35,821 bases of DNA, taken from IMG/VR virus record IMGVR_UViG_2698536369_000023, one strand, 5' to 3'. This DNA comes from a virus (Duplodnaviria; Heunggongvirae; Uroviricota; Caudoviricetes). Position 1 is the first letter of the stretch. Every line of letters starts with the position of its first letter. Of the stretch, positions 4,438 to 19,231 are shown in pieces. The notes under the pieces are model-generated. The model worked only from the letters and a program-made list of their open reading frames with translations, searched no databases and was not told the origin of the DNA. A program made the translations under genes and the position numbers.

Positions 4438-4495
4438 AAAAAGGGCGGCAGAGCAGTCACGGAGTAAAACTGATACCGCCAAACGTCACCAGAAA
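4438..4495 (-). ncRNA. dicF: DicF small regulatory RNA (ftsZ-targeting antisense sRNA)
   Basis: Reverse complement of 4438-4495 reads TTTCTGGTGACGTTTGGCGGTATCAGTTTTACTCCGTGACTGCTCTGCCGCCCTTTTT, matching recalled DicF; it lies between ydfC and dicB as in Qin. Confidence 0.75.
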
Positions 4496-6745: not shown

Positions 6746-7021
6746 ATGAATCTTGGAGAATATTTGCATCATTCCGGTATAACTCAGAAGCATTTTGCTG
6801 AAATTGTTGGGGTAACCCAAGGGATGGTAAGCCATGTCATTACCGGACGGGCGAAACTTACGGGGAAAAAAATTTTACGCTGGTGCGAAGCAACAGGCTG
6901 GATAGTAACTCCGCACGAGATTGATGGCAGTACTTATCCCAACCCAACCGACGGCTTACCTGTCGAGTATCAGGCTAACACACAACCAGAGGCGGGGGTG
7001 ATTCATGAAAATCAAGCATGA
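6746..7021 (+). CDS. Cro-like HTH regulator (YdaS/Cro family)
   Basis: 91 aa with HTH motif QKHFAEIVGVTQGMVSHVITG; divergent from the repressor; RBS GAGGTG. Confidence 0.7.
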   Translation: MNLGEYLHHSGITQKHFAEIVGVTQGMVSHVITGRAKLTGKKILRWCEATGWIVTPHEIDGSTYPNPTDGLPVEYQANTQPEAGVIHENQA

Positions 7022-7430
7022 ACACATCCGCATGGCAATGAATGCCTGGGCGCATCCGGACGGCGAAAAAGTACCGGCTGCGAAAATTACCAAAGCGTAT
7101 TTCGAGCTGGGAATGACGTTCCCGGAACTGTATGACGACAGCCATCCGGAAGCCCTGGCTCGCAATACTCAGAAAATTTTCCGCTGGGTGGAGAAAGACA
7201 CCCCTGATGCGGTTAAAAAAATTCAGGCGTTGTTACCAGCTATCGAAAAAGCAATGCCACCTCTGCTGGTGGCCCGAATGCGCAGCCACAGTTCTGAATA
7301 TTACCGTGAGATCGTCGAACGGAGGGATCGGCTGGTGAAGGATGTCGATGATTTTGTTGCGTCAGCGGTTGTTTTGTATGACCAGATGAATCGCGGCGGC
7401 CCGGCAGGGAATGCTGTGGTGATGCACTAA
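7005..7430 (+). CDS. YdaT-family protein (CII-like position)
   Basis: 141 aa starting MKIKHEHI..., matching the recalled Rac YdaT N-terminus; overlaps the cro-like gene end by 17 nt. Confidence 0.55.
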   Translation: MKIKHEHIRMAMNAWAHPDGEKVPAAKITKAYFELGMTFPELYDDSHPEALARNTQKIFRWVEKDTPDAVKKIQALLPAIEKAMPPLLVARMRSHSSEYYREIVERRDRLVKDVDDFVASAVVLYDQMNRGGPAGNAVVMH

Positions 7431-7452
7431 AAGCACGGTGTTCGGGGGTTTT

Positions 7453-8415
7453 ATGAGCAGCAAGCTTCATGGTCTTGTCTGGGAAGGGTGCGCCTTTACC
7501 GGCATGATCTTATCCAGGGTGGCGGTTATGGCCCGTCTTGCAGACTACAGCAATGACGAGGGCGTGTCATGGCCTGCCATTGAAACTATCCGGCGTCAGA
7601 TCGGTGCAAGAAGTGAATCCACAGTGAAATCGGCTATTGCAGAACTGGCGAAAGAGGGCTGGCTGACGAAGGAAGAGCGTAAGGTCGGTGGGCGTAATGT
7701 AAGCAATATCTATCGGCTTAATGTGGAAAAACTCGAAGCAGCTGCGGCGGCGGCGCGTGAGTCATATAAACCGAAAAGAAAAATTAGCCCGGCAAAAAAT
7801 GACCCGTTAACAGTTGACCCGTCAAATATTGACCCCTCAACGGTTGACCCGTCAAATTTTGATGGATCAACTGTTGATAAAAAACTGCCGATTAGGGGGG
7901 CGATGATTGACCCCGATCCGTCAGTATTAAAACCTGATCCGTCAGATAAAAGATCTTCTTGTCCGGACGCTTCGCAACCGGACCCGCAGACGGCTGAACA
8001 GGATTTTTTAACCCGACACCCTGACGCGGTTGTGTTCAGTGCGAAAAAACGCCAGTGGGGAAGTCAGGAAGATTTGGTGTGCGCACAGTGGATCTGGGGA
8101 CGAATCGTGAGTCTTTACGAGCAGGCGGCCAGCTATGATGGCGAGATCACTAGACCGAAAGAACCCAACTGGACAGCATGGGCCAATGACGTTCGCACAA
8201 TGCGGATGCTGGATGGCAGAACTCACAGACAAATTTGTGAAATGTTTGGGCGTCTCCAGCGGGATTCGTTCTGGGTAAAAAACATCATGAGTCCGGCAAA
8301 ACTCCGGGAAAAATGGGATGAACTGGTTATCCGCCTGGGGCGTTCGCCTGCGCAGCGTTGCGTGAATCACATTTCTGAACCGGACACTGAAATACCGCCG
8401 GGATTCAGGGGGTGA
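7453..8415 (+). CDS. Phage replication initiation protein (O-like) with origin iterons embedded in the coding sequence
   Basis: ORF with GGGGG RBS before ATG 7453 (the track starts at a GTG at 7438); N-terminal winged-helix-like region; iteron array inside the gene; followed by a DnaC-like loader. Confidence 0.65.
   Translation: MSSKLHGLVWEGCAFTGMILSRVAVMARLADYSNDEGVSWPAIETIRRQIGARSESTVKSAIAELAKEGWLTKEERKVGGRNVSNIYRLNVEKLEAAAAAARESYKPKRKISPAKNDPLTVDPSNIDPSTVDPSNFDGSTVDKKLPIRGAMIDPDPSVLKPDPSDKRSSCPDASQPDPQTAEQDFLTRHPDAVVFSAKKRQWGSQEDLVCAQWIWGRIVSLYEQAASYDGEITRPKEPNWTAWANDVRTMRMLDGRTHRQICEMFGRLQRDSFWVKNIMSPAKLREKWDELVIRLGRSPAQRCVNHISEPDTEIPPGFRG
7799..7885. repeat. Replication origin iterons: six approximately 15-bp repeats (TTGACCCGTCAAAT-like, each internally palindromic TTGAC..GTCAA) followed by an AT-rich segment
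   Basis: Repeat starts near 7799, 7814, 7829, 7844, 7859 and 7874 at 15-bp periodicity, then ttgataaaaaact; analogous to ori-lambda inside gene O. Confidence 0.7.
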
Positions 8416-8421
8416 CGTGTC

Positions 8422-9168
8422 ATGAAAAACATTGCGGCAGTTGGGGTTCTTGAACGTATTCGCAGACTTGCACCACAGGGGTCGGTTCCACCGTACCGGA
8501 CGGTGGAGGAGTGGCGGGAATGGCAACTTGCTGAAGGACGAAAACGCAGCGAGGAGATTAACCGCCAGAATCGCCAGTTGCGGGTGGAAAAAATCCTGAA
8601 TCGTTCGGGCATCCAGCCTCTGCACAGCAAATGCTCGTTTGCAAATTATCAGGTGCAGAACGACGGGCAAAAATACGCGCTGAGCCAGGCCAAATCCATA
8701 GCTGACGAACTGATGACCGGGTGCACGAATTTTGTGTTCAGCGGTAAAACCGGCACCGGGAAAAATCACCTTGCAGCGGCGATGGGCAACCGGCTGATGG
8801 TGAAGGGGCGCAGCGTGATTATCGTCACCGTGTCTGACGTCATGAGCGTGTTGCATGACAGCTACGACAACGGCAAATCCGGGGAAAAATTTTTACAGGA
8901 GCTTTGCGGGGTTGATTTGCTGGTCCTGGATGAAATAGGCGTTCAGCGGGAGACGAAAAACGAGCAGGTGGTATTGCACCAGATAATTGATCGCCGGACA
9001 GCATCACTGTGCAGTGTCGGGATGTTAACAAACCTGAATCATGCCGCAATGAGTACGCTTCTTGGTGAGAGGATTATGGACCGCATGACCATGAACGGTG
9101 GTCGATGGGTGACGTTTAACTGGGATAGCTGGCGTCCAAATGTCAGCAATATGAGGGTTGTGAAGTAA
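8422..9168 (+). CDS. DnaC-like helicase loader (IstB-type AAA+ ATPase)
   Basis: Walker A GKTGTGKNHLA and Walker B DLLVLDEIG; follows the initiator as in lambdoid O-P / Rac ydaU-ydaV. Confidence 0.85.
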   Translation: MKNIAAVGVLERIRRLAPQGSVPPYRTVEEWREWQLAEGRKRSEEINRQNRQLRVEKILNRSGIQPLHSKCSFANYQVQNDGQKYALSQAKSIADELMTGCTNFVFSGKTGTGKNHLAAAMGNRLMVKGRSVIIVTVSDVMSVLHDSYDNGKSGEKFLQELCGVDLLVLDEIGVQRETKNEQVVLHQIIDRRTASLCSVGMLTNLNHAAMSTLLGERIMDRMTMNGGRWVTFNWDSWRPNVSNMRVVK

Positions 9169-9189
9169 TTTTGTCCGGAGGAAATTTTA

Positions 9190-9960
9190 ATGGAAACCGT
9201 ATCTGACGCACTGAAAGCACTGAAAAAAGCCTCTTCACATGTGGTGGCAGCTCGCCTTGGAATCAGTCGTGAAGAGGCTGTCAACGAGCTGTGGGAACTC
9301 AAAAGAAAAGGCGTCGTTGATAAAACTGGTCACACCTGGTTTCTGGCTGGCGAAGGTGAATCCCGGGTAACCGAAGAGCGGCCAGTAAAATCTGAAGCAC
9401 AGGATATGCTGACCGGGGAGGTCGAACAAAAAGTTACCGCAGACATGATGATTGAGTTTATCGGTCAGGATGGGGCTAAAACGTGTGAGGAACTGGCGGG
9501 TAAGTTCGGTGTCAGTACTCGCAAGGTTGCTTCCACGCTGGCGGTGGTAACCGCAACGGGGCGGCTGGCACGCGTTAATCAGAACGGTAAATTTCGTTAC
9601 TGCATGCCGGGCGATAATTTACCAGCAGAGCCGAAAGCCGCGCTGGTAACGGAAAGTGATGGTAAGGCCTTTCCTCAGCCAGCAGGTGCTGCGTTACCAG
9701 TCCGGGAAGCCGCAACACAGGAAGAAATTAAAACAGAAACTGTGGCGGACATTGTGCAGCCGTTGCCATCGTTTACCGAAACGCAAGCAGATGAGCTGAT
9801 TTTTCCGTCCCTTCGCAGGGCAAACCTGGCGCTGCGCAGGGCGAAAAGTGATGTTCAGAAGTGGGAGCGAGTCTGCGCCGCGCTGCGGGAGCTGAACAAG
9901 CACCGGGATATTGTTCGACAGATTACTGATTCTTCCCGCCGTGTTGTATCGGAAAAGTGA
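9190..9960 (+). CDS. Hypothetical early-region protein (recalled as a DUF1627-type enterobacterial prophage protein)
   Basis: 256-aa ORF with GGAGG RBS; domain name from memory only. Confidence 0.5.
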   Translation: METVSDALKALKKASSHVVAARLGISREEAVNELWELKRKGVVDKTGHTWFLAGEGESRVTEERPVKSEAQDMLTGEVEQKVTADMMIEFIGQDGAKTCEELAGKFGVSTRKVASTLAVVTATGRLARVNQNGKFRYCMPGDNLPAEPKAALVTESDGKAFPQPAGAALPVREAATQEEIKTETVADIVQPLPSFTETQADELIFPSLRRANLALRRAKSDVQKWERVCAALRELNKHRDIVRQITDSSRRVVSEK

Positions 9961-9975
9961 TTGCCGGAGGCGCTT

Positions 9976-10398
9976 ATGGCAAAAGTATTTACACAAGAAG
10001 AGCGGGAAAAAATTAAAGGGCAGGTTGTTGAACTAGTACGCCGGAGTGGGCGCGAGACGTTACGGCAACTGGAAGCCAAGACAGGTGCGACAAGATATCT
10101 GATGAGCGTTCTCGCCAGAGAGCTGGTTGCCAGTGGCGATGTATACAACTCTGGTTACGGGTTATTCCCGTCTGAACAGGCTCGTAAGGACTGGCAAAAT
10201 GCCCGCAAAAAACTATCTAGGGCAAAGGTGAAGAAACCATCTGTGGTTGATCCGGATCTTATCTGGTCATTACCAGACGGAGAAATACGTCGCTACGACA
10301 GGCGTATGAGCATAATCTGTCGCGAGTGCCGGAGAAGTGAAGTTATGCAGCGCGTGCTGGCGTTCTATCAGGGGAATTTTCAGGAGGTGATGCTGTGA
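9976..10398 (+). CDS. Hypothetical protein
   Basis: ATG at 9976 preceded by GGAGG (the track ORF starts at a TTG at 9961); 4-nt overlap with the next gene. Confidence 0.5.
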   Translation: MAKVFTQEEREKIKGQVVELVRRSGRETLRQLEAKTGATRYLMSVLARELVASGDVYNSGYGLFPSEQARKDWQNARKKLSRAKVKKPSVVDPDLIWSLPDGEIRRYDRRMSIICRECRRSEVMQRVLAFYQGNFQEVML

Positions 10399-10883
10399 GT
10401 ACACCGGCAACCATTCTTGATATGTGCTGTGGCAGCCGTATGTTCTGGTTCGATAAGAATGACGACCGGGCGATATTTAGCGATATCAGAAAGGAAGAGC
10501 ATACATTGTGCGATGGGCGACGCCTGATTATTAGCCCTGACCTGATAGCAGATTTTCGTGCATTACCATCTGCAGACGCAACGTTTCCGGTTGTTGTATT
10601 CGACCCTCCGCATCTTGAGCGTATTGGTGATAATGCCTGGATGGGAAAGAAATATGGACGGCTGAATAAAGATACCTGGCGTGATGATTTGCGGCAGGGA
10701 TTTAAAGAAGCCTTTCGTGTGTTGTGGCCACATGGCGTTCTGATTTTTAAATGGAATGAAACGCAAATATCTGTCCGCCAGATATTGGCACTGACCGACG
10801 TGAAACCAATCATCAGCCAGCGCACTGGTAAGAACGATAAAACACATTGGATTATTTTTATGAAGGAGGCAACCAGTGGGTAA
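10395..10883 (+). CDS. Small phage DNA adenine methyltransferase (phage Dam-like; DPPH motif)
   Basis: N-terminal LDMCCGSRM (SAM-binding-like) and VVVFDPPH (D/N-PP-Y/F/H catalytic motif of amino-MTases); AGGAGG N6 GTG start. Confidence 0.6.
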   Translation: MSTPATILDMCCGSRMFWFDKNDDRAIFSDIRKEEHTLCDGRRLIISPDLIADFRALPSADATFPVVVFDPPHLERIGDNAWMGKKYGRLNKDTWRDDLRQGFKEAFRVLWPHGVLIFKWNETQISVRQILALTDVKPIISQRTGKNDKTHWIIFMKEATSG

Positions 10884-11130
10884 ATCAAAATGCCTGGTTT
10901 ATGGCAACAAGATAGAACCGTGTACGGCACTGGCAAAATCCCTTGAGCATGATGCTGAATACACGACGCGAAAAGGTCTGCTGATATACAAAATCTGGAA
11001 TGAGAGTTTAACTCGCGGCCCTGATTTGGTGATGTTGCGTTCCGGTGAATTTTCTAAATCACCAGTGCGGGTTTCATTTTGTCCGTTCTGTGGTGAAAGT
11101 CTGAAAACGTGGGAGAACAGAAATGAATGA
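10876..11130 (+). CDS. Hypothetical protein with a CxxC pair
   Basis: 84-aa ORF, GTG start with GAAGGAGG RBS; contains CPFCGE. Confidence 0.45.
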   Translation: MGKSKCLVYGNKIEPCTALAKSLEHDAEYTTRKGLLIYKIWNESLTRGPDLVMLRSGEFSKSPVRVSFCPFCGESLKTWENRNE

Positions 11131-11434
11131 AATTAAAGAAATACCAGTAGTACGTGATGAATATGGCTGCTGGACGCATCCTGAATATGAAAAATTCTGT
11201 GATGGTAGAGAACATATTTCAACGGAAGAGTTTAACGCATGGATGGAGGAAAATAATCTTCAATGGACCATCAGAACTATGGATGAAGATGATTTTAATC
11301 TGGACGCAGATGGTCCCGATATTGCCGCTTGGGAACCAGAGCGACCAGAGGGCGAAGGCTGGTTTGTTGGCTCTATTCATGACACTGAAGATGGTCCTGT
11401 TTGTGTATGGCTGAGAAATAAGGCTGAAGCATAA
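11123..11434 (+). CDS. Hypothetical acidic phage protein
   Basis: 103-aa ORF with RBS; overlaps the previous gene by 8 nt. Confidence 0.5.
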   Translation: MNEIKEIPVVRDEYGCWTHPEYEKFCDGREHISTEEFNAWMEENNLQWTIRTMDEDDFNLDADGPDIAAWEPERPEGEGWFVGSIHDTEDGPVCVWLRNKAEA

Positions 11435-11563
11435 AGGCGATAAATCACCTGGCAACAAAACACTGAAAAATTTAAATCAGAAGTGAATTTTATTAAATCC
11501 TTAACCGGAGGGATTCCTGCACCCTCAGAACATCAGGAGGCCGCCTGAAAGGGCGGTAATGAA

Positions 11564-11746
11564 ATGCGAAAGTTCAGAATAATAATTGAAACGGGAATGG
11601 CTGGTGGAGATTTTGAGGATGTATTCGAAGTGGATGATGGCGCGACACCAGATGAAATACAGGACGAAGCAAAAGAAATTTTCTTTAACTACTGCAATTA
11701 CTCATATCACGAAATAAAAGACGAGGAGGAAGAACAAAATGGCTGA
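11564..11746 (+). CDS. Small hypothetical acidic protein
   Basis: 60-aa ORF with AAAGGG RBS. Confidence 0.4.
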   Translation: MRKFRIIIETGMAGGDFEDVFEVDDGATPDEIQDEAKEIFFNYCNYSYHEIKDEEEEQNG

Positions 11747-11915
11747 TTTTGGTTCAACTAAATACAACGTCAGTTTTGAAGAATGGCATGAACTGTTAAT
11801 GGACTATGCAGAGTTACGCGGTGGAAGTGCTGCTGATGCTGAAGCATGGCGTGATGATTATGAAGCAGGGAAAACTCCGGTCGAAGCATATTGTGATGAG
11901 TGGGGCGATGAATGA
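11739..11915 (+). CDS. Small hypothetical protein (58 aa; manually detected)
   Basis: ATG 11739 overlaps the previous stop and its stop overlaps the next start (ATGA); product MADFGSTKYNVSFEEWHELLMDYAELRGG... Confidence 0.35.
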   Translation: MADFGSTKYNVSFEEWHELLMDYAELRGGSAADAEAWRDDYEAGKTPVEAYCDEWGDE

Positions 11916-12469
11916 GCGGGATTAACTATCAGATGCTGCGGGATAAGGCAGAGAACGCAACTAAAGGAGGCTACATCGTAGGGCATACATCTGTTAACCA
12001 GCACGGTAATTTAACAGGAGTTTTTGTTTGTCAAAAATGGAAAGGAGAACCAGGTGGCGTGATTGCAGAATGTCATGTTAACTGCCTGGTTGAAACAGAT
12101 GCTCAGGCTTATGCAAACGCAGAATTCATAGCAGAGGCTAGCCCGGCTACCGTGCTGGCACTACTGGATGAACGGGAAGCAGCCAACAAGCGCATAGCAG
12201 AACTGGAAGCACGGGAAATAAAACCAGCCAAAGGCGAAGTTCTTGTCGTTGTATCTGGTTTTACTGGTTGCGGAAAAAGCGCCATCGCCGGGGAAATAGA
12301 AATCGCGATGAAGGCTATTGGTGTACCGGTTAAGTGGACTAATGGCGATGCAGAAAAGCGCATGACTGGCGCTGACTGGCTGACAGCGATTGAGATGTAC
12401 AAACCAACTGTGCGCATCGTGGAAGTTAATGTGCCACGCGCCGCTGGCATTCGCATCAAAGGAGAGTGA
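11912..12469 (+). CDS. Ead/Ea22-like protein
   Basis: Motif PATVLALLDEREAANKRIAELEA resembles the recalled Ead/Ea22-like family of lambdoid prophages. Confidence 0.55.
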   Translation: MSGINYQMLRDKAENATKGGYIVGHTSVNQHGNLTGVFVCQKWKGEPGGVIAECHVNCLVETDAQAYANAEFIAEASPATVLALLDEREAANKRIAELEAREIKPAKGEVLVVVSGFTGCGKSAIAGEIEIAMKAIGVPVKWTNGDAEKRMTGADWLTAIEMYKPTVRIVEVNVPRAAGIRIKGE

Positions 12470-12470
12470 T

Positions 12471-12680
12471 ATGGCTATCGCTGCAAGTTACACCATGCAT
12501 CTCTATTGTGATTGCCTCCAGTGTACAGATGGCAAATATAAGTCGCCAGACTTCGGTGAGTATATAGGTACGTCATGGGCTGGCTGTGCAAAAGAGGCGC
12601 GCAAGGATGGCTGGCGAATAAGCAAAGACAAAACGCGTGCTTTTTCACCCGGGCATAAAGTTTTGAGGATTAACAAATGA
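12471..12680 (+). CDS. Small cysteine-rich hypothetical protein
   Basis: ATG 12471 with AAAGGAGAG RBS (the track ORF 12390-12680 is N-extended); CDCLQC motif. Confidence 0.45.
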   Translation: MAIAASYTMHLYCDCLQCTDGKYKSPDFGEYIGTSWAGCAKEARKDGWRISKDKTRAFSPGHKVLRINK

Positions 12681-13486
12681 CAACATTTACCGACGACGAC
12701 AAGAAACTAATTAAAGAAATCAAAGAGCGTATCAGCAGCCCGGAGGTTCGAGACGATATTGAGCGCCGGGCTTATGAAATAGCGTTAGCCTCGCTGGAAG
12801 CAGAGCCGGTGGCATGGCTGCATTCAGACAATGGCTTAGGTATTCCGGCAATAACGAGGAGTAAAAACATTGCTGACAGTTGGTTATCAAAGAGCTGGTA
12901 TGTTCAGCCGCTATATATAGCCAAGCCAGTGCCGGTGGAGCCAGATGCTCGTCCGTCTTTAAATAATGGCATAGTCGGCTTTGATGAAGGCTGGAACGCT
13001 TGCCGCGCCGCCATGATTCATGCCGGAAACTTTCGGGAAAACTTGAATTCGTCAACCAATAATTTTCGGGAAATTGCGGAAACGTCAATCAACTCTCCGG
13101 TAGTTCCTGGTGAGGTGTTGTCCGCAATCCGGGAGGTTGCCAGGGTTCGTGCCGATTTCGATGATTTTGACGGTGACAGGCGAGGTATCGGTGATTGTCT
13201 GAATGAGTCTGAGCAAGAGCTTATCGTTACCATTAACAAATATGCCAGTCAGATTGCAGCAAAGCCGCCGCAGGAGGAGAAGAGTGGGAACGCTGACTGT
13301 ACCGCCACTTCTGGTAAAACTGACAATCCACAAGCATCCGGAAAACAGGTTGATGAATTAACCATGTTGGTTAAGCGATTAGCCAGTTCGTTAAAAAGCG
13401 TCAATAAATCAAGTAAGCTGCCTGATAAGGCGATGGATTATCTTTTGCGGAACGGACTGGTAAGTGTGGAGGGGAGGGGACGATGA
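12677..13486 (+). CDS. Hypothetical protein (nin-region)
   Basis: 269-aa ORF overlapping the previous stop by 4 nt. Confidence 0.5.
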   Translation: MTTFTDDDKKLIKEIKERISSPEVRDDIERRAYEIALASLEAEPVAWLHSDNGLGIPAITRSKNIADSWLSKSWYVQPLYIAKPVPVEPDARPSLNNGIVGFDEGWNACRAAMIHAGNFRENLNSSTNNFREIAETSINSPVVPGEVLSAIREVARVRADFDDFDGDRRGIGDCLNESEQELIVTINKYASQIAAKPPQEEKSGNADCTATSGKTDNPQASGKQVDELTMLVKRLASSLKSVNKSSKLPDKAMDYLLRNGLVSVEGRGR

Positions 13487-13566
13487 CCTGGCCTGAGGCA
13501 TTTACCACGGTAGGGATTGCAATGGCCGTGGCGTTGGTGGTGTATTCGATTTGCCGCTGGGGGTAA
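13483..13566 (+). CDS. Possible 27-aa single-TM peptide
   Basis: ATGA-coupled to the upstream gene; product MTWPEAFTTVGIAMAVALVVYSICRWG is hydrophobic. Very short, so speculative. Confidence 0.25.
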   Translation: MTWPEAFTTVGIAMAVALVVYSICRWG

Positions 13567-14030
13567 GGTATTAAAGAATGCCCCCGCACACATAAGTTGA
13601 GCGTCTGAGGTGTGGGGATAGGGAGTTAGTTAAATTGTTATACAACAATATCTGATTTTGTATTGAAGCAAGGAAGAGGTTGCCACATATTGAATCATGC
13701 ACGTGTACGTCAAATGTGGGAGGTCATCGTGCTGGTTCTGAAATGTGCGCTGGCTATTGCGGCTGTAATGGCAATTTATTGTCTTGTTATCGTTCTTATG
13801 GATCACCTTTCTGATTGATTTTATATTGGCGAGGTGACGGGAGTTAAGTAGAATTGCTGCGGGTGCTTGAGGCTGTCTGCCTCAGGCATGAACACCAAAA
13901 GGCAGATAGAGAAAAGCCCCAGTTAACATTACGCGTCCTGCAAGACGCTTAACATTAATCTGAGGCCATATCTATGCTCTACACACGTAGGTTAGCCTCT
14001 TACGTGCCGAAAGGCAAGGAGAAGCAGGCT

Positions 14031-14186
14031 ATGAAGCAGCAAAAGGCGATGCTAATCGCCCTGATCGTCATCTGTTTAACCGTCATAGTGACGGCACTGG
14101 TAACGAGGAAAGACCTCTGCGAGGTACGAATCCGAACCGGCCAGACGGAGGTCGTTGTCTTCACAGCTTACGAACCTGAGGAGTAA
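14031..14186 (+). CDS. hok: Hok/Gef-family type I toxin
   Basis: MKQQKAMLIALIVICLTVIVTALVTRKDLCEVRIRTGQTEVVVFTAYEPEE is a Hok/Gef match; the upstream leader has hok-like fold-back elements; a terminator follows. Confidence 0.85.
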   Translation: MKQQKAMLIALIVICLTVIVTALVTRKDLCEVRIRTGQTEVVVFTAYEPEE

Positions 14187-14254
14187 GAGACCCGGCGGGG
14201 GAGAAATCCCTCGCCACCGCTGATGTGTCAGGCATCCTCAACGCACCCGCACTT

Positions 14255-14282
14255 AACCCGCTTCGGCGGGTTTTGTTTTTTC
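14255..14282 (+). terminator. Rho-independent terminator after hok
   Basis: CCCGC-TTCG-GCGGG hairpin followed by TTTTGTTTTT. Confidence 0.7.
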
Positions 14283-14353
14283 TGGTCGTTCTGGTTTACA
14301 ATCCATCCGTCAGCCTGAACAACTGGCACCTGCTGCGCCAGCAGAGAAAACAG

Positions 14354-14632
14354 ATGGCGCACGATACCAAATTTTACAATTCGGATAACTCTGCCGCCCC
14401 TGCCAGCAGGCACGGGCGGCGTTCTCATGCATTCAAATATGACTGGTATCAGCACGATCCCTGCACTGAAGAACAGGCCGAATGGCTGATCCATAACTAC
14501 CGCAGACGTGGGTATGAGTTTAGGAAAGCCCTCAGCCTCGATTATCGTCACTGGATAATCTACGTCAGGCTGCCGTACTCCGAGCGCCCACCGCGTCCGT
14601 CCCGCACATTCCAGCAACGCATCTGGAGGTAA
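14354..14632 (+). CDS. Hypothetical protein (between hok and DUF968)
   Basis: In-frame ATG downstream of the hok terminator; the track ORF from 14225 would read through the terminator and is taken as over-extended. Confidence 0.45.
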   Translation: MAHDTKFYNSDNSAAPASRHGRRSHAFKYDWYQHDPCTEEQAEWLIHNYRRRGYEFRKALSLDYRHWIIYVRLPYSERPPRPSRTFQQRIWR

Positions 14633-14633
14633 C

Positions 14634-15674
14634 GTGCGGGTATTACTTCGACCTGTTCCGGTACCGGAACTTGGGTTGGTGGTCCTTAAACCAGGCCGTG
14701 AATCCATGCAGGTATTCCATAACCCTCGAGTGCTTGTGGAGCCGGAACCGAAAAGCATGCGCGGTCTGCCGTCCGGCATCGCCCCTGCCGTTCGCCAGCC
14801 GCTGGCGGAGGATAAATCATTACTGCCGTTTTTCAGTAACGCACGGGTGATTCGTGCTGCTGGTGCATTGTCTGACTGGCTGTTGCGCCATATTAAATCC
14901 TGCCAGTGGCCACACGGCGATTATCATCACAGCGAAACCGTCATTCACCGTTATGGTACCGGCGCAATGGTGTTGTGCTGGCACTGCGACAACCAGCTGC
15001 GTGACCAGACATCCGAATCACTCGAGCAACTTGCTCATCAAAACCTGTCAGCATGGATGATTGACGTCATACGCCATGCAATGAATGGCACGCAGGAGCG
15101 GGAATTATCTCTGGCTGAATTATCCTGGTGGGCAGTCTGCAATCAGGTGGCGGATGCACTCCCAGAGTCAGTATTACGTCGTTCTCTGGGGTTACGTGCG
15201 GACAAAATCCGCTCAGTGTACCGCGAAAGCGACATTGTACCGGGAGAGCAGAGCGCCACCAGCATACTGAAGCAGCGCACAAAAAATCTTGCGCCGTTGC
15301 TTCACACCCACCAGCCACAGAACCCAGCACAGGAAAAGCAGGTGGTCAGCATTGCCGTTGATCCGGAGTCTCCGGAATCTTTCATGAGGCGACCTAAACG
15401 TCGCCGTTGGGTAAATGAGAAATATACGCGCTGGGTGAAGACACAGCCGTGTGCGTGTTGTGGTCAACCAGCCGACGATCCCCATCACCTGATTGGTCAC
15501 GGTCAGGGAGGGATGGGAACAAAGGCCCACGATATTTTCACGCTACCGTTGTGCCGGGAACATCACAACGAACTTCATGCGGATCCGCTGGCGTTCGAAG
15601 AAAAGCATGGTTCTCAGGTTGATTTAATTTTTCGTTTTCTTGATCACGCCTTTGCAACCGGCGTGCTTGGGTAA
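14634..15674 (+). CDS. DUF968-family protein (YdfU-like) with C-terminal Cys/His HNH-like motif
   Basis: 346 aa, GTG start after GGAGG; C-terminal CACCG...HHLIGHG...CREHHNELH; nin-region position before rusA. Confidence 0.6.
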   Translation: MRVLLRPVPVPELGLVVLKPGRESMQVFHNPRVLVEPEPKSMRGLPSGIAPAVRQPLAEDKSLLPFFSNARVIRAAGALSDWLLRHIKSCQWPHGDYHHSETVIHRYGTGAMVLCWHCDNQLRDQTSESLEQLAHQNLSAWMIDVIRHAMNGTQERELSLAELSWWAVCNQVADALPESVLRRSLGLRADKIRSVYRESDIVPGEQSATSILKQRTKNLAPLLHTHQPQNPAQEKQVVSIAVDPESPESFMRRPKRRRWVNEKYTRWVKTQPCACCGQPADDPHHLIGHGQGGMGTKAHDIFTLPLCREHHNELHADPLAFEEKHGSQVDLIFRFLDHAFATGVLG

Positions 15675-15686
15675 AAGAGGTTACTG

Positions 15687-16058
15687 ATGCGTATAGAGTT
15701 TGTTTTGCCTTATCCGCCGACGGTGAATACTTACTGGCGACGTCGTGGCAGCACATATTTTGTATCAAAAGTCGGTGAGTGTTATCGCCGTGATGTGGCG
15801 CTTATTGTTCGCCAGCAGCGGCTGAAATTAAAACTGTCCGGAAGGCTGGCGATAAAGATTATTGCAGAGCCACCGGATAAGCGCCGCCGCGACCTGGACA
15901 ATATCCTGAAAGCACCACTGGATGCGCTGACGCATGCCGGACTTCTCATAGACGACGAGCAGTTTGATGAAATCAATATTGTGCGCGGTCAGCTCGTTCC
16001 TGGTGGGCGACTGGGCGTGAAGATTTGCGAAATCAGAGGTGATGGTAATGGGGCGTGA
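15687..16058 (+). CDS. rusA: Holliday junction resolvase RusA
   Basis: 123 aa with RusA-like core (DKRRRDLDNILKAPLDALTHAGLLIDDEQ). Confidence 0.85.
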   Translation: MRIEFVLPYPPTVNTYWRRRGSTYFVSKVGECYRRDVALIVRQQRLKLKLSGRLAIKIIAEPPDKRRRDLDNILKAPLDALTHAGLLIDDEQFDEINIVRGQLVPGGRLGVKICEIRGDGNGA

Positions 16059-16398
16059 TATGTATGAGGTTTTAGATCGCTGGGGGGCATGGGCTGCAGC
16101 AGAAAATAGCGGTGTCGATTGGCAACCGATAGCAGCGGGCTTCAAGGGGCTTTTGCCACATGGCAAAAAGTCACGTCTCCAGTGTAATGATGATGAAGGC
16201 ATCATGATAGACGGTTGTGTGGCTCGGTTGCGAAAGTATAAACCAGAGGAATATGAGCTGCTCATAGCTCACTTTGTTATTGGTGTTTCTCTACGCTCAA
16301 TCGCGAAGAAACGCAGGTGCTCAGATGGAACTATAAGAAAGGAGCTGCAAACTGCATTAGGCTTTATTGATGGATGTATATGCTTGATTCTATCATAA
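16048..16398 (+). CDS. Late gene antitermination protein Q (QuuD/phage-82 type)
   Basis: VLDRWGAWAAAENSGVDWQPIAAGFKGLL resembles the recalled QuuD N-terminus; start ambiguous between 16039, 16048 and 16060; overlaps the rusA end. Confidence 0.7.
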   Translation: MGRDMYEVLDRWGAWAAAENSGVDWQPIAAGFKGLLPHGKKSRLQCNDDEGIMIDGCVARLRKYKPEEYELLIAHFVIGVSLRSIAKKRRCSDGTIRKELQTALGFIDGCICLILS

Positions 16399-16411
16399 GT
16401 TATGACTGTTA

Positions 16412-16798
16412 CTACTCGTTTGCTTGAGCTTTCGATTCGGCGTCAGATAAAGCATCAATACGAATATTTATGTTTTTTAATAGCTTATTGTCTAGATCGA
16501 TAAGACATTGGTTGTAGTGCGCAATTTGGTCTGGTGTTAGGTTAGGGTTGGCCAGGCAGTTCGTGATGAATTTTCTGGCCGTTTTTATTTCCCTTTTCAT
16601 TCTTACATCATTAAGCGTAGGCAAACCTATGTAAGCGATAAGAAGAATTACCACATGAGATAAGCCGACAGCAGCTCCAGGCGCCAATGATTTGAAGAAG
16701 GCTAATTGAGGAAGCCAGTCAAAAAGGAAATTCAATCCCGCAGTGATAAGGGTGGTAAACCATGCCTGCATTGCCAGGTAGGATTTAGTGTTCGCCAT
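16412..16798 (-). CDS. Unknown cassette protein C: 128 aa, two predicted N-terminal TM helices and a C-terminal soluble/coiled-coil-like tail
   Basis: Third gene of a tightly packed minus-strand operon; hydrophobic stretches AWFTTLITAGLNFLF and GAAVGLSHVVILLIAYIGL; AT-rich by eye; no family recognised. Confidence 0.6.
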   Translation of the reverse strand: MANTKSYLAMQAWFTTLITAGLNFLFDWLPQLAFFKSLAPGAAVGLSHVVILLIAYIGLPTLNDVRMKREIKTARKFITNCLANPNLTPDQIAHYNQCLIDLDNKLLKNINIRIDALSDAESKAQANE

Positions 16799-17044
16799 TC
16801 ACCTTCCTGCACTTGCTTCGTTGCGAGTTTTGAGTTCGCGTAGCAGTAGCGCCAACTCTTCTGCGTCATTTTCGTTTCTAACGCTGACTTTCCTTTTAGC
16901 GGTTCTGCCTTCAGGATCGGTGTAGGTTAGTTCAATATACGCATTCGGCTTTACCCAAACCAAGAACCTAAGCACAGCATATCTGACCGTCGCTGCGACA
17001 GCCATGAATACAGTGATGTAAAGCATAATGCTTAGGATTGACAT
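16799..17044 (-). CDS. Unknown cassette protein B: 81 aa, one N-terminal TM helix and a charged C-terminus
   Basis: Stop abuts the start of gene C; begins 3 nt after the gene A stop; hydrophobic MSILSIMLYITVFMAVAATV. Confidence 0.55.
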   Translation of the reverse strand: MSILSIMLYITVFMAVAATVRYAVLRFLVWVKPNAYIELTYTDPEGRTAKRKVSVRNENDAEELALLLRELKTRNEASAGR

Positions 17045-17047
17045 GAT

Positions 17048-17926
17048 TTAAAGTAGTTTCCTATCTGCCGCCGCTCTGTGGCGTATAACCTTAGTAATAC
17101 TATAGCGTGGTTTAGACAGCGCGCCATTTGTTTCTTTTGTTGTTTCTGTCAGTTCTACAACAAAAAGATCACCCTTACAGAATGCTGCTTGGTTGTGTTC
17201 AACCCGTTCAAGAAAAGCCTCATCTTTCATAGATGCGCTAACTTCTTCGCCATTTGGCAGGATGATATCCCAGCTTTTGCCTTGCTTGAATCGAACATTA
17301 GCAAAATGTACATTAGCTTGGCGTGTCGTTACGTGCGTTTTCTCGACAAAGGTGGATTTTGCAGTTTTAAAACTTACTGCTTCAGCTTGCGTCACCCTGA
17401 CTACCTTATGCTTCTGCTGTGAAACTGAGAACGTGGATGGTTTTTCAGTCTGCAGGGGTTTATAGATTAATTTATCCAGTTCTTTTCGGATGATTGGACT
17501 GGTTATTAATTTTTGAATGTCGTTACTGCATTTAACCTTCTCACCATCCACTTCGATTTCTGCTGTATCTTTTTGTTCATCGACGACAATGGAGCTGATT
17601 TTACGCCCTTTGAGCCATTCGATTATCCCGAGTACGCCACCTGCGGCAACTCCACCACCTGCAACGAGGCCAAGGGCGTTAATAGTTTTTATGCTCCCCA
17701 TCACAGCAACAAGCAAAGTAAATGAACCTTCTTTTGTTGCCTTGATGTTGACTTTCGGCTCTGCTGTTTCGCCATTAATTATTTTTTCGGCGTGTTCAAT
17801 CAGGGCACTAAGAGAGGTTAAGGCTTCGCCTAATGTTTTCGCGTCGATCTGATTATCTGCGTATGCCTCTCCACCGTAGGCAATTTCGATTTCTGTTATT
17901 GGCATGTTTTCGAGTTGCTGCGTCAT
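17048..17926 (-). CDS. Unknown cassette protein A: about 292 aa with an internal glycine-zipper hydrophobic segment and a beta-rich-looking C-terminal half
   Basis: Start placed at ATG 17926 with AAAGGA N8 RBS (the track ORF begins at a GTG at 17959); segment GLVAGGGVAAGGVLGIIEWL; no recognisable family. Confidence 0.6.
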   Translation of the reverse strand: MTQQLENMPITEIEIAYGGEAYADNQIDAKTLGEALTSLSALIEHAEKIINGETAEPKVNIKATKEGSFTLLVAVMGSIKTINALGLVAGGGVAAGGVLGIIEWLKGRKISSIVVDEQKDTAEIEVDGEKVKCSNDIQKLITSPIIRKELDKLIYKPLQTEKPSTFSVSQQKHKVVRVTQAEAVSFKTAKSTFVEKTHVTTRQANVHFANVRFKQGKSWDIILPNGEEVSASMKDEAFLERVEHNQAAFCKGDLFVVELTETTKETNGALSKPRYSITKVIRHRAAADRKLL

Positions 17927-17971
17927 CAAAAGCATCCTTTGCGCAAGAGAAATAGCCACAGGATACAGATA

Positions 17972-18001
17972 ATTATGAAAAAATCACTAACGCGTACGCA
18001 A
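17972..18001 (-). promoter_or_regulatory. Candidate sigma70 promoter for the three-gene cassette
   Basis: Minus-strand -35 TTGCGT (17996-18001), 18-nt spacer, -10 CATAAT (17972-17977), about 45 nt upstream of the proposed start. Eyeball prediction only. Confidence 0.25.
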
Positions 18002-18046
18002 AAACTATCTTAATCTGTTAAGAGTGGTCGCTTCGCCACACAACTT

Positions 18047-18071
18047 AAACCCGCATCAAGCGGGTTTTTTT
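18047..18071 (+). terminator. Plus-strand rho-independent terminator (tR'-like) upstream of the tRNA/lysis region
   Basis: ACCCGC-ATCAA-GCGGGT hairpin followed by 7 T. Confidence 0.65.
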
Positions 18072-18191
18072 GTGCCACTTATCTCGGATAGACATGGTGA
18101 ATGCGCTGGTGGAGGAGATAAGGGTGATTTTTAACCAGGTGATTTTTGAATGCTTGCAACATTGATTTTGTAACGTTATTATCCTGCGCCC

Positions 18192-18267
18192 GGCCCTTTA
18201 GCTCAGTGGTGAGAGCGAGCGACTCATAATCGCCAGGTCGCTGGTTCAAATCCAGCAAGGGCCACCA
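18192..18267 (+). tRNA. tRNA with anticodon CAT (Ile2/Met type)
   Basis: Cloverleaf foldable by eye: acceptor GGCCCTT/AAGGGCC, anticodon loop CTCATAA, T-loop GGTTCAAATCC, 3' CCA encoded. Confidence 0.85.
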
Positions 18268-18268
18268 G

Positions 18269-18345
18269 CCGCCACTAGCTCATCAGGAAAGAGCGTCAAC
18301 CCTTTAAGTTGAGTGTGCGAGGTTCGAGTCCCCGGTGGCGGTCCA
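18269..18345 (+). tRNA. tRNA with atypical anticodon loop CCTTTAA (UUU/Lys by canonical positions, C at position 33)
   Basis: Perfect 7-bp acceptor stem CCGCCAC/GTGGCGG, D-stem GCTC/GAGC, anticodon stem TCAAC/GTTGA, T-loop TTCGAGT, CCA encoded; one A-C mismatch in the T-stem. Confidence 0.6.
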
Positions 18346-18347
18346 GT

Positions 18348-18423
<76 letters not shown>

Positions 18424-18426
18424 TAT

Positions 18427-18501
<75 letters not shown>

Positions 18502-18507
18502 GTTAGA

Positions 18508-18553
18508 GTCTTTCAGTCTGCGATGATGGGAAATCCCGGAGTGACTGAAAGAC
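18508..18553. repeat. Perfect 11-bp inverted repeat (GTCTTTCAGTC / GACTGAAAGAC) with a nested GGGA..TCCC hairpin, just 3' of the tRNA array
   Basis: Read directly from the sequence; could be a processing or termination structure in the late leader. Confidence 0.6.
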
Positions 18554-18562
18554 GTTTAAGTT

Positions 18563-18631
18563 ATGAATGATCGCTTTTTTTTGCAAAATTGCTGTGCAGA
18601 AATACTAACCTTCGGGCAGGCGATCATTCAT
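18563..18631. repeat. Perfect 12-bp inverted repeat (ATGAATGATCGC / GCGATCATTCAT) flanking a T8-containing 45-nt spacer
   Basis: Read directly from the sequence; lies in the leader upstream of the holin gene. Confidence 0.55.
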
Positions 18632-18792
18632 AAGCACTCTGCTTTATTCCGATTAACTGTGGGTGGTTTGTTGGATAGAGTGCTTCCCTTACTGTATATA
18701 TTGTTTCGCCCGCTTTTGCGGTTTTTTCTTTTCAAATCCCTTTCATTTCTCAGTGTAAAACTACGCCATCCGTTATTTGCGGAGGTGAGGCT

Positions 18793-19008
18793 ATGAAATC
18801 CATGGACAAAATTTCAACGGGCATTGCCTACGGCACCTCCGCAGGCAGTGCTGGCTACTGGTTTTTACAGTGGCTTGATCAGGTCAGTCCGTCACAGTGG
18901 GCTGCGATTGGTGTACTGGGGAGTCTGGTTCTGGGCTTCCTGACTTATCTGACAAATCTGTACTTCAAAATCAGAGAAGACAAACGTAAGGCTGCACGGG
19001 GAGAGTAA
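18793..19008 (+). CDS. S: Class II pinholin (phage 21 S21-type) with dual-start motif
   Basis: 71 aa beginning [27 protein letters not shown]...; the two Met codons (M1, M4) fit the antiholin/holin dual start; GGAGGTGAGG RBS. Confidence 0.85.
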
Positions 19009-19012
19009 TTCA

Positions 19013-19231
19013 ATGACTCAAAAATATGAACTGATTGTGAAAGGGATCCGCAATTTTGAGAATAAAGTTACGGTAATCTTAACGTTACAGGACAACGAAC
19101 GTTTTGCCGGTGAAATTTTTGATCTGAACATCAACCTTGAGCGACTTGAAGGGGCTGGTTTGGATTATTATGAAGTTACTGCGGTAAAACATGCCAAACA
19201 GTTCTTGAGAGATTTGGCTGAAAAAATATAA
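19013..19231 (+). CDS. Hypothetical small protein inserted between holin and endolysin
   Basis: 72-aa ORF with GGGGAGAG N7 ATG RBS, 4 nt after the holin stop; AT-rich by eye; no family recognised. Confidence 0.55.
   Translation: MTQKYELIVKGIRNFENKVTVILTLQDNERFAGEIFDLNINLERLEGAGLDYYEVTAVKHAKQFLRDLAEKI

Follow-up and report, generated by a model that had tools for sequence, protein, structure and literature searches.

The hok/sok (parB) locus of plasmid R1 is the type system of its family, and its mechanism was reportedly established by Gerdes and co-workers. Relatives of this locus are carried by prophages, among them hokD (relF) in Qin and Qin-like prophages; in the Qin prophage of K-12, the genes upstream of hokD are presumably relBE. 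Another relative is the hokW-mokW-sokW locus of the Stx2 phages 933W and Sakai prophage 5 (Takada et al. 2021, PMC8621323; GenBank AF125520). HokW is only 44% identical to R1 Hok, hokW-sokW was demonstrated by experiment to be a type I toxin-antitoxin pair, a mutant of the sokW -10 element lost antitoxin activity, and the pair assists lysis and phage release after induction rather than post-segregational killing (PMC8621323). In the present study, a locus of this family was analysed in the window, i.e. the whole stretch of 35,821 nucleotides, where it lies within the nin-type early region of a lambdoid prophage of E. coli. We read the region as three independent modules in tandem, namely a hok/mok/sok cassette, a 27-aa ORF and a 29-aa ORF, and assign a probability of roughly 0.8 to this full joint reading. 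The hok/sok part is known, since it represents an intact allele from a thoroughly studied family in which a prophage copy nearly identical to it was tested before. The sequence elements of the cassette and the folds that they form were observed as follows, the two RNAs themselves being predicted:

13826 to 13854, plus strand: hok promoter, with -35 TTGGCG, a 17-nt spacer and -10 TAGAAT (promoter scan).
13861 to 14282, plus strand: predicted hok mRNA of about 420 nt, with tac, the metastable 5' hairpin, the Sok target/mok start region, mok, hok, fbi and the terminator (Rfam and folds).
13861 to 13872, plus strand: tac element, within the 5' end of the hok mRNA.
13863 to 13889, plus strand: metastable 5' hairpin of the hok mRNA (fold).
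13912 to 13982, minus strand (13982 to 13912): predicted Sok RNA of about 71 nt (sokW mapping, fold).
13974 to 14186, plus strand: mok frame, 70 aa, in frame with hok, with the ribosome-binding site GAGG at 13962 to 13965 (ORF list, alignment to annotated mokW).
13989 to 14017, minus strand: sok promoter, with -35 TTGCCT (14017 to 14012), a 17-nt spacer and -10 TAACCT (13994 to 13989) (sequence, conservation, identity to 933W sokW).
14031 to 14186, plus strand: hok toxin gene, 51 aa, with the ribosome-binding site AAGGAG at 14016 to 14021 (Pfam, PHROG, alignment).
14236 to 14248, plus strand: fbi element, the partner of tac (minimum-free-energy fold).
14255 to 14282, plus strand: intrinsic terminator of the hok mRNA (terminator scan).

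Several results identify this cassette. First, the 51-aa product matches the Pfam family HOK_GEF (PF01848) at E = 5.8e-22 (77.5 bits; cut-off, 22) and phrog_251, 'MokW-like host killing', at 1.9e-32, and in alignment it is identical to HokD at 50 of 51 residues and to HokW at 46 of 51. The first-pass annotation, which had named a Hok/Gef homologue at this position and a type I toxin locus, is fully supported. Second, a covariance-model search of Rfam, proposed at that stage as a check for hok/sok RNA, returned a full-length match to RF01794 at 13861-14036 (117.8 bits; gathering score, 59), which begins 6 nt 3' of the -10 element of the hok promoter; because the match lies on the plus strand, that of hok, it identifies the leader and not the Sok gene as such. 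Besides this leader and a sub-threshold match to isrK, the Rfam search of the region at a permissive threshold yielded only noise. Third, the TGAGGC-TGTCT-GCCTCA stem noticed earlier near 13867 is real and forms part of a longer, 11-bp hairpin, in which 13863-13873 pairs with 13879-13889 (-19.6 kcal/mol, z = -5.2). In the minimum-free-energy fold of the full-length hok mRNA, 13861-72 pairs with 14236-48 (z = -6.7), and each of the 12 tac-fbi pairs is retained in 97-99% of 102 distinct loci, among which no covariation is visible, the search pattern having fixed the tac side. The GAGG motif lies 8 nt upstream of the mok ATG at 13974, which is invariant across the 102 loci, and the mok frame overlaps hok and is collinear with the annotated mokW of 933W. 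The 3' terminator was also present as first described, as a stem at 14255-14272 with a T-run after it. No regulatory part expected of a hok/mok/sok cassette is missing, and the cassette is, by its sequence, a complete type I toxin-antitoxin system of the HokD/HokW type.

The Sok gene was the part of the locus for which the first-pass annotation could not place a promoter, and the RNA had been expected on the minus strand around 13955-14030. A predicted antisense gene could be placed on that strand, and the expected coordinates were about 45 nt too far towards hok: the expected interval contains the promoter and the 5' end of the RNA, and the RNA body runs from 13982 to 13912. The promoter was placed at 14017 to 13989, in a stretch identical to that of sokW, and the annotated sokW of 933W corresponds to 13912-13982. 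The fold of the predicted RNA is stable (-32.2 kcal/mol, z = -5.0): 15 unpaired nucleotides at the 5' end, complementary to the mok start region, lead into a long hairpin, which is followed by a U-run. Among the 102 distinct loci, the sok -35 element is invariant and the -10 element nearly so, and variation is concentrated in the Sok 5' tail, with the sok -35 element, the mok ATG and fbi conserved. By consensus the promoter is weak, matching at 4/6 positions in the -35 and 3/6 in the -10 element; as the consensus promoter scan applied a cut-off of 9/12, it missed both this promoter and the promoter-like element of the 29-aa ORF described below, which also scores below that cut-off, and the two were located by eye and by conservation.

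A mechanism for the cassette can be proposed by analogy with the R1 system. Transcription of the hok mRNA (13861-14282) would start 6 nt past the promoter TTGGCG-17-TAGAAT, and the 5' end of the nascent transcript would form the metastable hairpin. In the full-length mRNA, the 5' tac would pair with the 3' fbi to give a closed and inert form, as in plasmid R1 hok, and subsequent 3' trimming would open the mok start region. The Sok RNA, made from its own constitutive promoter, would bind this region through its 5' tail, and the pairing would block mok translation and trigger cleavage by RNase III; with mok translation blocked, the coupled translation of hok would also be blocked. When the labile Sok RNA is lost, e.g. 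upon prophage induction, Hok would be made, insert into the inner membrane and depolarise the cell. The toxicity of Hok and the action of Sok in this scheme are taken from the knowledge of R1 hok/sok and from hokW-sokW (PMC8621323).

Upstream of the cassette lies the first of the two small ORFs, together with the gene that precedes it:

12677 to 13486, plus strand: 269-aa mosaic Ea22/ead-like ORF (PHROG matches; context only).
13483 to 13566, plus strand: 27-aa small membrane-protein gene (predicted) of the 'WPEAF' family, MTWPEAFTTVGIAMAVALVVYSICRWG (conservation, pN/pS).

The 269-aa ORF matches at least five different PHROGs along its length, and in the closest genome the PGAP annotation over this stretch consists of pseudogene pieces only. 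As originally described, the 27-aa ORF is coupled to this gene, its ATG overlapping the TGA as ATGA. It belongs to a family with the pattern M-[TSN]-WPEAF-xx-VG followed by one predicted transmembrane helix, of which about 40 peptide variants were found; among 119 loci, the length is 27 aa in 108 and the ATGA junction is present in 112, behind at least five unrelated upstream gene families. The ORF is present in 94 phage records and in 1532 of 5426 E. coli genomes (about 28% of the complete genomes); it is carried by many lambdoid phages, Stx phages among them, and by some virulent phages, e.g. Av-05. When the second codon is serine, it is AGY in 25 of 25 cases, so that the overlapping TGA is preserved, and a ribosome-binding site precedes the ORF in 62 of 66 contexts. 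The pN/pS ratio is 0.35 in frame, compared with 1.05-1.7 off-frame; since the loci were collected with an anchor pattern inside the ORF (codons 3-11), codons 12-27 were also considered alone and gave 0.45, compared with 1.06-1.71 off-frame. Thus, the peptide is kept in frame across the 119 loci, and the suggestion that this might be a chance ORF is rejected, because frame, length, start and purifying selection are all conserved across divergent homologues. On this comparative evidence, the 27-aa ORF would be a real small single-pass membrane protein of a widespread phage family. It would be the last cistron of 'ea'-type operons, translated by termination-reinitiation at the ATGA.

The earlier grouping of this ORF with the hok locus is misleading. 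A hok leader lies within 50 nt 3' of the ORF in 33 of the 119 loci and is absent in 76; the ORF is found with or without hok and is therefore not a hok component, but a module in its own right, which lacks an accompanying hok in about two thirds of the sampled loci. The idea that fusion to the upstream gene is the normal state of the ORF was also rejected, since such a fusion was observed in only one locus of about 125, where it arose through an indel. A protein homology search with a 41-aa in-frame extension of the ORF returned only entries named 'hypothetical', 'bacteriophage protein' or, mislabelled, 'DUF551, partial'; among these homologues, a Pfam domain is present on a single 71-aa match only.

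The second small ORF is located between the 27-aa ORF and the hok promoter, and is preceded by a promoter-like element:

13663 to 13691, plus strand: promoter-like element of the 29-aa ORF, with -35 TTGAAG (13663 to 13668), a variable 17-nt spacer and -10 CATATT (13686 to 13691) (conservation).
13729 to 13818, plus strand: 29-aa GTG-initiated small membrane-protein ORF (predicted), V/M-LVLKCALAIAAVMAIYCLVIVLMDHLSD (conservation, substitution pattern).

The GTG start and the GGGAGG ribosome-binding site (13718-23; GGAGG at 13719-23), 5 nt before the GTG, are present as given in the first-pass annotation. Both hexamers of the promoter-like element are kept across at least three otherwise divergent upstream families while the spacer varies, and the ORF would be expressed from this weak promoter of its own. 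The ORF was found in 2643 of 5426 E. coli genomes (about half) and is confined to Escherichia and Shigella. When loci were collected by an anchor in the 5' UTR, and thus outside the ORF, the GTG was retained in all 125 and the ORF was intact in 124. Together with the excess of synonymous variants (P = 0.002) described below, these counts make a chance ORF, as the earlier annotation had allowed, unlikely, and the peptide is kept in frame across homologous loci.

A different reading of the same conservation is that the ORF is untranslated and that the block is a DNA or RNA sequence serving hok, either as the promoter of a 5'-extended transcript or as an upstream activating region, with the frame incidental. 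Such a role would suit the position of the block: its GTG lies 132 nt from the start of the hok transcript, a distance fixed in 67 of 68 loci, the sequence and terminator scan found no terminator between the ORF and the hok promoter, and the last ~20 nt of the block stay with this promoter even where the rest is replaced. The 3' conservation of the ORF may indeed be due in part to the flank of the hok promoter. The GTG start and the very short length of the ORF point in the same direction, as does the all-pairs pN/pS of 0.43, barely apart from the 0.49-0.68 of the other frames at this low divergence (pS ~0.11). The pattern of the individual variants, however, is that of a coding sequence. There are 19 synonymous variants where 10.5 are expected, 18 non-synonymous and no stop (permutation P = 0.002), they are distributed over the three codon positions as 10/7/20, and the +1 frame would gain six stops; moreover, the non-synonymous changes are conservative (A/V/T, I/V/M, D/E/N, H/R). 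The GGAG(G) motif is invariant at optimal spacing and the GTG is invariant while the 4-5 nt between them vary, and within the module the ORF varies least (0.43 variants per site, compared with 1.36 in the 5' flank). We consider a purely regulatory block unlikely, and the 29-aa ORF is probably a real small inner-membrane protein, as judged from its pattern of conservation.

The relationship of the 29-aa ORF to hok requires a separate explanation. In the sets sampled the ORF was never seen away from hok, and this strict linkage holds in about half of the E. coli genomes, in three Escherichia species and in Shigella. The peptide might be proposed as a functional partner of Hok that makes the Qin-type hok/sok system a three-component one, either as a membrane modulator or an antidote of Hok, as a second lytic peptide, or as a cistron that tunes the system by read-through transcription across the hok and sok promoters. 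In addition, another lineage has a second, unrelated small membrane ORF at the same place by the hok promoter; in a weaker version of the proposal, two sequence-unrelated ORFs, each abutting the hok promoter in different lineages, may reflect a need for a small membrane peptide beside hok. If a third component were confirmed, about half of the E. coli genomes would carry a three-gene hok/sok variant that went unnoticed because K-12 apparently lacks the module. Nevertheless, two neighbouring morons that move as one block would be linked in any case, the complementarity of the module to the hok mRNA or Sok is not above that of shuffled sequence, and hok/sok loci without the 29-aa ORF, e.g. that of 933W and Sakai prophage 5, are fully functional (PMC8621323). 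About 50 hok loci retain only the last ~7 codons of the ORF, and hok therefore does not need it. A working third component is thus quite improbable in our view, and we favour independent modules, in which the 29-aa ORF is physically welded to the hok promoter and co-inherited with it, with no recognisable regulatory tie. The module was also compared with hok as a possible relic duplicate, a candidate that was rejected with nucleotide and peptide alignments at or below shuffled controls.

Finally, the suggestion that the small ORFs might be further membrane toxins, i.e. that one or both are extra type I toxins with their own antisense RNAs in a multi-toxin cluster with hok, is unsupported and very improbable: although both encode a single hydrophobic helix of 27-29 aa, the size class of TisB, ShoB and ZorO, and a minus-strand promoter-like match (TTAACT-18-TAAAAT, 13847 to 13818) would yield an antisense RNA against the 29-aa ORF, the promoter scan found three sites where 1.5 +/- 1.4 are expected by chance, and the -10 of this match is polymorphic, the consensus of the 102 loci being TGAAAT with the A at position 2 lost; the 27-aa ORF lacks both a promoter and a 5' UTR of its own and has no minus-strand promoter-like site nearby in the promoter scan, is coupled through ATGA to ordinary phage genes and occurs in virulent phages too; the RNA of the 29-aa gene (5' UTR and ORF, 13698-13830) folds like shuffled sequence (z = +0.47); and the two peptides resemble neither Hok nor each other beyond the level of shuffled sequences. 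The promoter scan and Rfam revealed no convincing antisense RNA gene for either ORF, the minus-strand match by the 29-aa ORF being the one candidate. No significant match to either peptide, to a toxin family or any other, was obtained in Pfam, NCBIfam, PHROG or PADLOC-type families, in which only chance-level matches to KdpF and ATP synthase c appeared; the best PHROG match of the 27-aa peptide, phrog_4612, was not significant at E = 0.019. Neither peptide string was found in a literature search or in the Sakai small-gene Ribo-seq supplements (PMC5597208), and neither ORF is annotated by PGAP in the genomes examined.

Both small ORFs are conserved, and no finding links either of them to the hok/sok control circuit. 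Transcription, translation and membrane insertion would be expected for the products of all three modules. The new by-products of the analysis are two conserved small membrane-protein genes (predicted) that RefSeq/PGAP leaves unannotated. They are modest leads for small-protein work that are cheap to test, and such tests could reveal extra membrane-active partners of prophage hok cassettes.

In comparison with known systems, the two small ORFs have no sequence similarity to named small-protein families, and they are unlike the similarly sized type I toxins TisB, ShoB and ZorO, in that no convincing antisense RNA gene and no structured leader was found for them. Their likeness is to the E. coli small inner-membrane proteins revealed by ribosome profiling and tagging (Weaver et al., bioRxiv 10.1101/511675), which share the length of 27-29 aa, the single predicted transmembrane helix and the omission from standard annotation. 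The cassette has the elements of plasmid R1 hok/sok, i.e. a Hok/Gef toxin, mok, a Sok tail and terminator hairpin, the tac/fbi closure and the metastable 5' hairpin, and differs in its location on a prophage instead of a plasmid. The hokW-mokW-sokW locus of 933W and Sakai prophage 5, likewise on a lambdoid prophage, has the same architecture, with ~93% nucleotide identity over 13841-14259 and a 70-aa mok in frame with hok, and a 27-aa WPEAF ORF lies directly upstream of hokW, where it is also unannotated. Several differences from 933W were observed: 8 substitutions fall in the ~22-nt Sok 5' tail/mok start region, suggesting that antisense specificity is probably separate; the Hok C-terminus, the 3' end and the terminator differ; the 29-aa module is absent from 933W; and the 933W cassette is located at the far end of the leftward early operon, by the attachment site, whereas that of the window lies between the replication genes and Q. 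In K-12-type Qin, homology to the window begins only at 14017, in the hok ribosome-binding site, the leader, mok and sok that the window carries in full being replaced; judging from these match boundaries, the 29-aa module is apparently absent as well, and small-protein screens in K-12 would have missed the ORF. The hokD loci of Qin and Qin-like prophages encode a toxin that differs from the Hok of the window at a single residue (A42V, WP_000813254.1), and they share its downstream neighbours, namely a 92-aa ORF, DUF968/YdfU, RusA and Q. In REL606, BL21, BL21(DE3), UTI89 and about half of the E. coli genomes, the same 29-aa module precedes hokD.

The two short ORFs upstream of hok, encoding peptides of 27 aa (13483-13566, plus strand) and 29 aa (13729-13818, plus strand), represent uncharacterised small-protein families that merit a simple experiment; the hok/sok cassette itself is already known. 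First, comparison across loci indicates that the 27-aa ORF is a genuine small-protein gene, apparently the last cistron of ea-type operons, translationally coupled and independent of hok. The ATG overlaps the TGA of the preceding 269-aa ORF as ATGA, and in seven related loci homology extends from ~15 nt 5' of the ATG to the stop codon, while the upstream genes vary (DUF551, 933W L0139, Ea22-like family). An IMG/VR scan fixing only the pattern WPEAF-xx-VG gave 119 usable loci with ~40 peptide variants (e.g. MNWPEAFTAVGVAIAVAFILYSLFRWG, MSWPEAFAIVGVAMAIAAIFIFWG, MGWPEAFASVGGGICFVAFAYVLCRYF); the length was exactly 27 aa in 108 and the start was ATGA in 112. Serine second codons were AGY in 25/25 and never TCN, and the overlapping TGA is thereby kept. 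A ribosome-binding-site core was observed 3-12 nt 5' of the ORF in 62 of 66 distinct contexts. The pN/pS was 0.35 in frame versus 1.05-1.7 in the other frames, except the antisense frame sharing third positions, and 0.45 for codons 12-27, outside the anchored motif. Downstream, 46 distinct contexts were observed, and the hok leader followed within 50 nt in 33 loci, after 200-300 nt in 10 and was absent in 76. Thus, the ORF, grouped with the hok locus in the first-pass annotation, is not a hok element. The peptide was detected by tblastn in 94 phage records, including the Stx phages 933W, VT2-Sakai, BP-4795 and Min27 and the virulent Vequintavirinae phage Av-05, and its DNA in 1532/5426 E. coli genomes. 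In every phage record inspected, the ORF directly follows an annotated CDS and carries no annotation of its own; the exact peptide appears in GenBank only as "bacteriophage protein", "hypothetical protein" or the mislabelled "DUF551, partial", and a literature search found no paper containing its sequence. From the acidic N-terminus and the sole positive charge in the C-terminal RWG, we infer an N-out, C-in topology. At a single locus (IMG/VR UViG_2861053794_000003, 9987-10012, minus strand), an indel near the 3' end of the Ea22-like upstream gene fuses the ORF to it in frame, and such fusions may be the source of the PGAP label "DUF551 domain-containing protein, partial" on peptide fragments. 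The 269-aa ORF (12677-13486, plus strand) is a mosaic: its segments match five or more different PHROGs, all of unknown function.

Second, the 29-aa ORF is probably a real gene (probability about 0.7). Its 181-nt module (13660-13840) is present in 2643/5426 E. coli genomes with no annotation over it, and in only 4 phage records. In a one-genome-per-species collection, it was restricted to E. albertii, E. ruysiae, Shigella flexneri and, apparently as E. coli contamination, three short MAG contigs. The alignment of 37 distinct sequences, whose upstream parts fall into three or more unrelated families, revealed these conserved blocks:

5' part: TTGAAT/G, exactly 17 variable nt, invariant CATATT
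3' part: GTGTACGTC(C/A)AAT, GGAG(G), 4-5 variable nt, invariant GTG, ORF

These blocks are the signature of a predicted promoter, ribosome-binding site and start codon. Collecting loci by an anchor in the 5'-UTR, which takes no account of the ORF, gave 125; the GTG was kept in all, 29 codons to the same stop in 124, and no frameshift or premature stop was found. The pooled variant alleles (n=37) comprised 19 synonymous and 18 non-synonymous changes, none of which creates a stop, distributed 10/7/20 over the codon positions; moving each substitution to another same-base site gave a mean of 10.5 synonymous changes versus the 19 observed (P=0.002), and the non-synonymous changes were conservative. 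The RNA of this region is not unusually structured (z=+0.47). The GTG lies 132 nt from the hok transcript start in 67/68 loci. Three points weaken the case for a gene: divergence is low, and the all-pairs pN/pS of 0.43 is barely apart from that of other frames (0.49-0.68); no terminator was found between the ORF and the hok promoter; and in ~50 loci only the last ~7 codons remain beside this promoter, with unrelated sequence upstream. The N-terminal K5 and the acidic C-terminal tail DHLSD point to a predicted N-in, C-out topology. The possibility, raised in the first-pass annotation, that the small ORFs arose by chance was not borne out, as both appear real and are conserved in frame. In different lineages, two unrelated small membrane ORFs each adjoin the hok promoter, and both are present in tandem in the window. 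An imperfect inverted repeat, CCCCGCACAC...GTGTGGGG, lies in the spacer between the two modules (13567-13660); its fold is not significant (z=-1.65), and the order 27-aa ORF, spacer, 29-aa ORF and hok is rare, with at least 80% of 13400-14300 covered in only 22 genomes.

Third, the hok type I toxin locus was confirmed, and a putative gene for its antisense RNA, Sok, could be placed:

13826-13854, sigma-70-like hok promoter (TTGGCG-17-TAGAAT), ending 6 nt before the first base of the RF01794 match
13974, plus strand, ATG of mok, GAGG 8 nt upstream, 70 codons, in frame into hok
14031-14186, plus strand, hok, 51-aa Hok/Gef protein (Pfam HOK_GEF, E=5.8e-22; phrog_251 "MokW-like host killing", 1.9e-32)
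14255-14272, intrinsic terminator followed by a T-run, as noted in the first-pass annotation
14017->14012 (-35 TTGCCT), 17 nt, 13994->13989 (-10 TAACCT), minus strand, putative sok promoter
~13982 to ~13912, minus strand, predicted Sok RNA: 15-nt single-stranded tail, long hairpin (13967->13916), U-run

The covariance-model search that had been proposed gave a full-length match to RF01794, the Rfam "sok" model (13861-14036, 117.8 bits, gathering score 59); lying on the plus strand and ending at the hok AUG, this match identifies the hok mRNA leader and not the Sok gene itself. Sok had been expected on the minus strand at 13955-14030; the strand was correct, but this interval covers the promoter and the Sok 5' end, not the RNA body. 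The RNA from ~13982 folds at -32.2 kcal/mol (z=-5.0), and the mok AUG and its flanks are complementary to the Sok tail. In the minimum-free-energy structure of 13861-14280 (z=-6.7; 0/100 shuffles as good), the first 12 nt (the 5' element tac) pair with 14236-14248 (its 3' partner fbi). Among 102 distinct hok loci, no variation was seen in the sok -35 or the mok ATG, and little or none in the hok ribosome-binding site and fbi; the most variable part is 13967-13988 (Sok tail/mok start), which suggests that antisense specificity may be diverging among paralogous or co-resident hok/sok copies. The hok 3' UTR (fbi and terminator, 14195-14276, plus strand) matches isrK, a small RNA family of Salmonella prophages, below threshold (RF01394, 27.2 bits vs gathering score 50, E=0.0013), which could reflect either a common terminator-type structure or a true relationship.

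It is unlikely that the 29-aa ORF is a third component of hok/sok: its module is not complementary to hok mRNA or Sok relative to shuffled controls, and the hok/sok of Sakai prophage 5 (Sp5) is functional without it (PMC8621323). Still less probable is that one or both peptides are additional type I toxins, as neither resembles Hok or the other beyond shuffled controls, the 27-aa ORF lacks a separate transcription unit, and the sole minus-strand promoter-like site (13847->13818) has a polymorphic -10 and is within chance (3 sites found vs 1.5 +/- 1.4 expected). Both readings are therefore minority ones, and we favor two separate small-protein genes.

The window is an E. coli lambdoid prophage, and its closest complete genome is E. 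coli Z1323CEC0003 (NZ_CP148493.1; 99.3% identity over window 6931-14022, 99.0% over 14017-19132). The gene order there (int, exo, dicB, repressor, replication genes, ea-like genes, hokD, DUF968, RusA, Q, four tRNAs, lysis genes, head genes) places hok and the small ORFs within the rightward early region, with the replication genes on one side and Q on the other. In the window, four tandem tRNA genes (18192-18498, plus strand; Ile, Lys, Thr and Gly per the relative's annotation) lie 3' of the Q antiterminator, and a full-length DicF small RNA (4443-4494, minus strand, 76.7 bits) lies within a dicB-type operon. Near its immunity region, the relative has genes for a RelE/ParE toxin and a YdaT-family protein; over the equivalent of 12677-13486, PGAP annotates only pseudogene fragments in it. 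In this genome, a ~1.1-kb IS element (minus-strand "integrase core domain" CDS) is inserted exactly at window 14017-14022, the hok ribosome-binding site and sok -35, separating hok from its leader; the locus in the window is uninterrupted. Chromosomal hok loci knocked out by IS elements are known from K-12.

The cassette is common, a homologous stretch being present in 4792/5426 complete E. coli genomes (median two places per genome). The hok mRNA of R1 has a metastable 5' hairpin, and the first 30 nt of the present mRNA alone form an 11-bp hairpin (-19.6 kcal/mol, z=-5.2) that would correspond to it. This hairpin includes the TGAGGC-TGTCT-GCCTCA fold-back recognised in the first-pass annotation, and in the full-length fold its bases have other pairing partners. 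The hok product is identical to HokD at 50/51 positions and to HokW at 46/51, and the mok frame runs collinear with mokW as annotated in phage 933W. The 71-nt sokW annotated in 933W maps to the equivalent of 13912-13982, allowing for a 1-nt indel, and all but one base of the 54 nt holding the sok promoter are identical between the window and 933W. In the homologous cassette of Sp5, toxicity was demonstrated for HokW, as was its neutralisation by sokW when expressed from the native sokW promoter; a -10 mutant loses this neutralising activity, and RNase III and Hfq contribute; after mitomycin C, hokW-sokW led to faster lysis and doubled phage release (Takada et al., PMC8621323).
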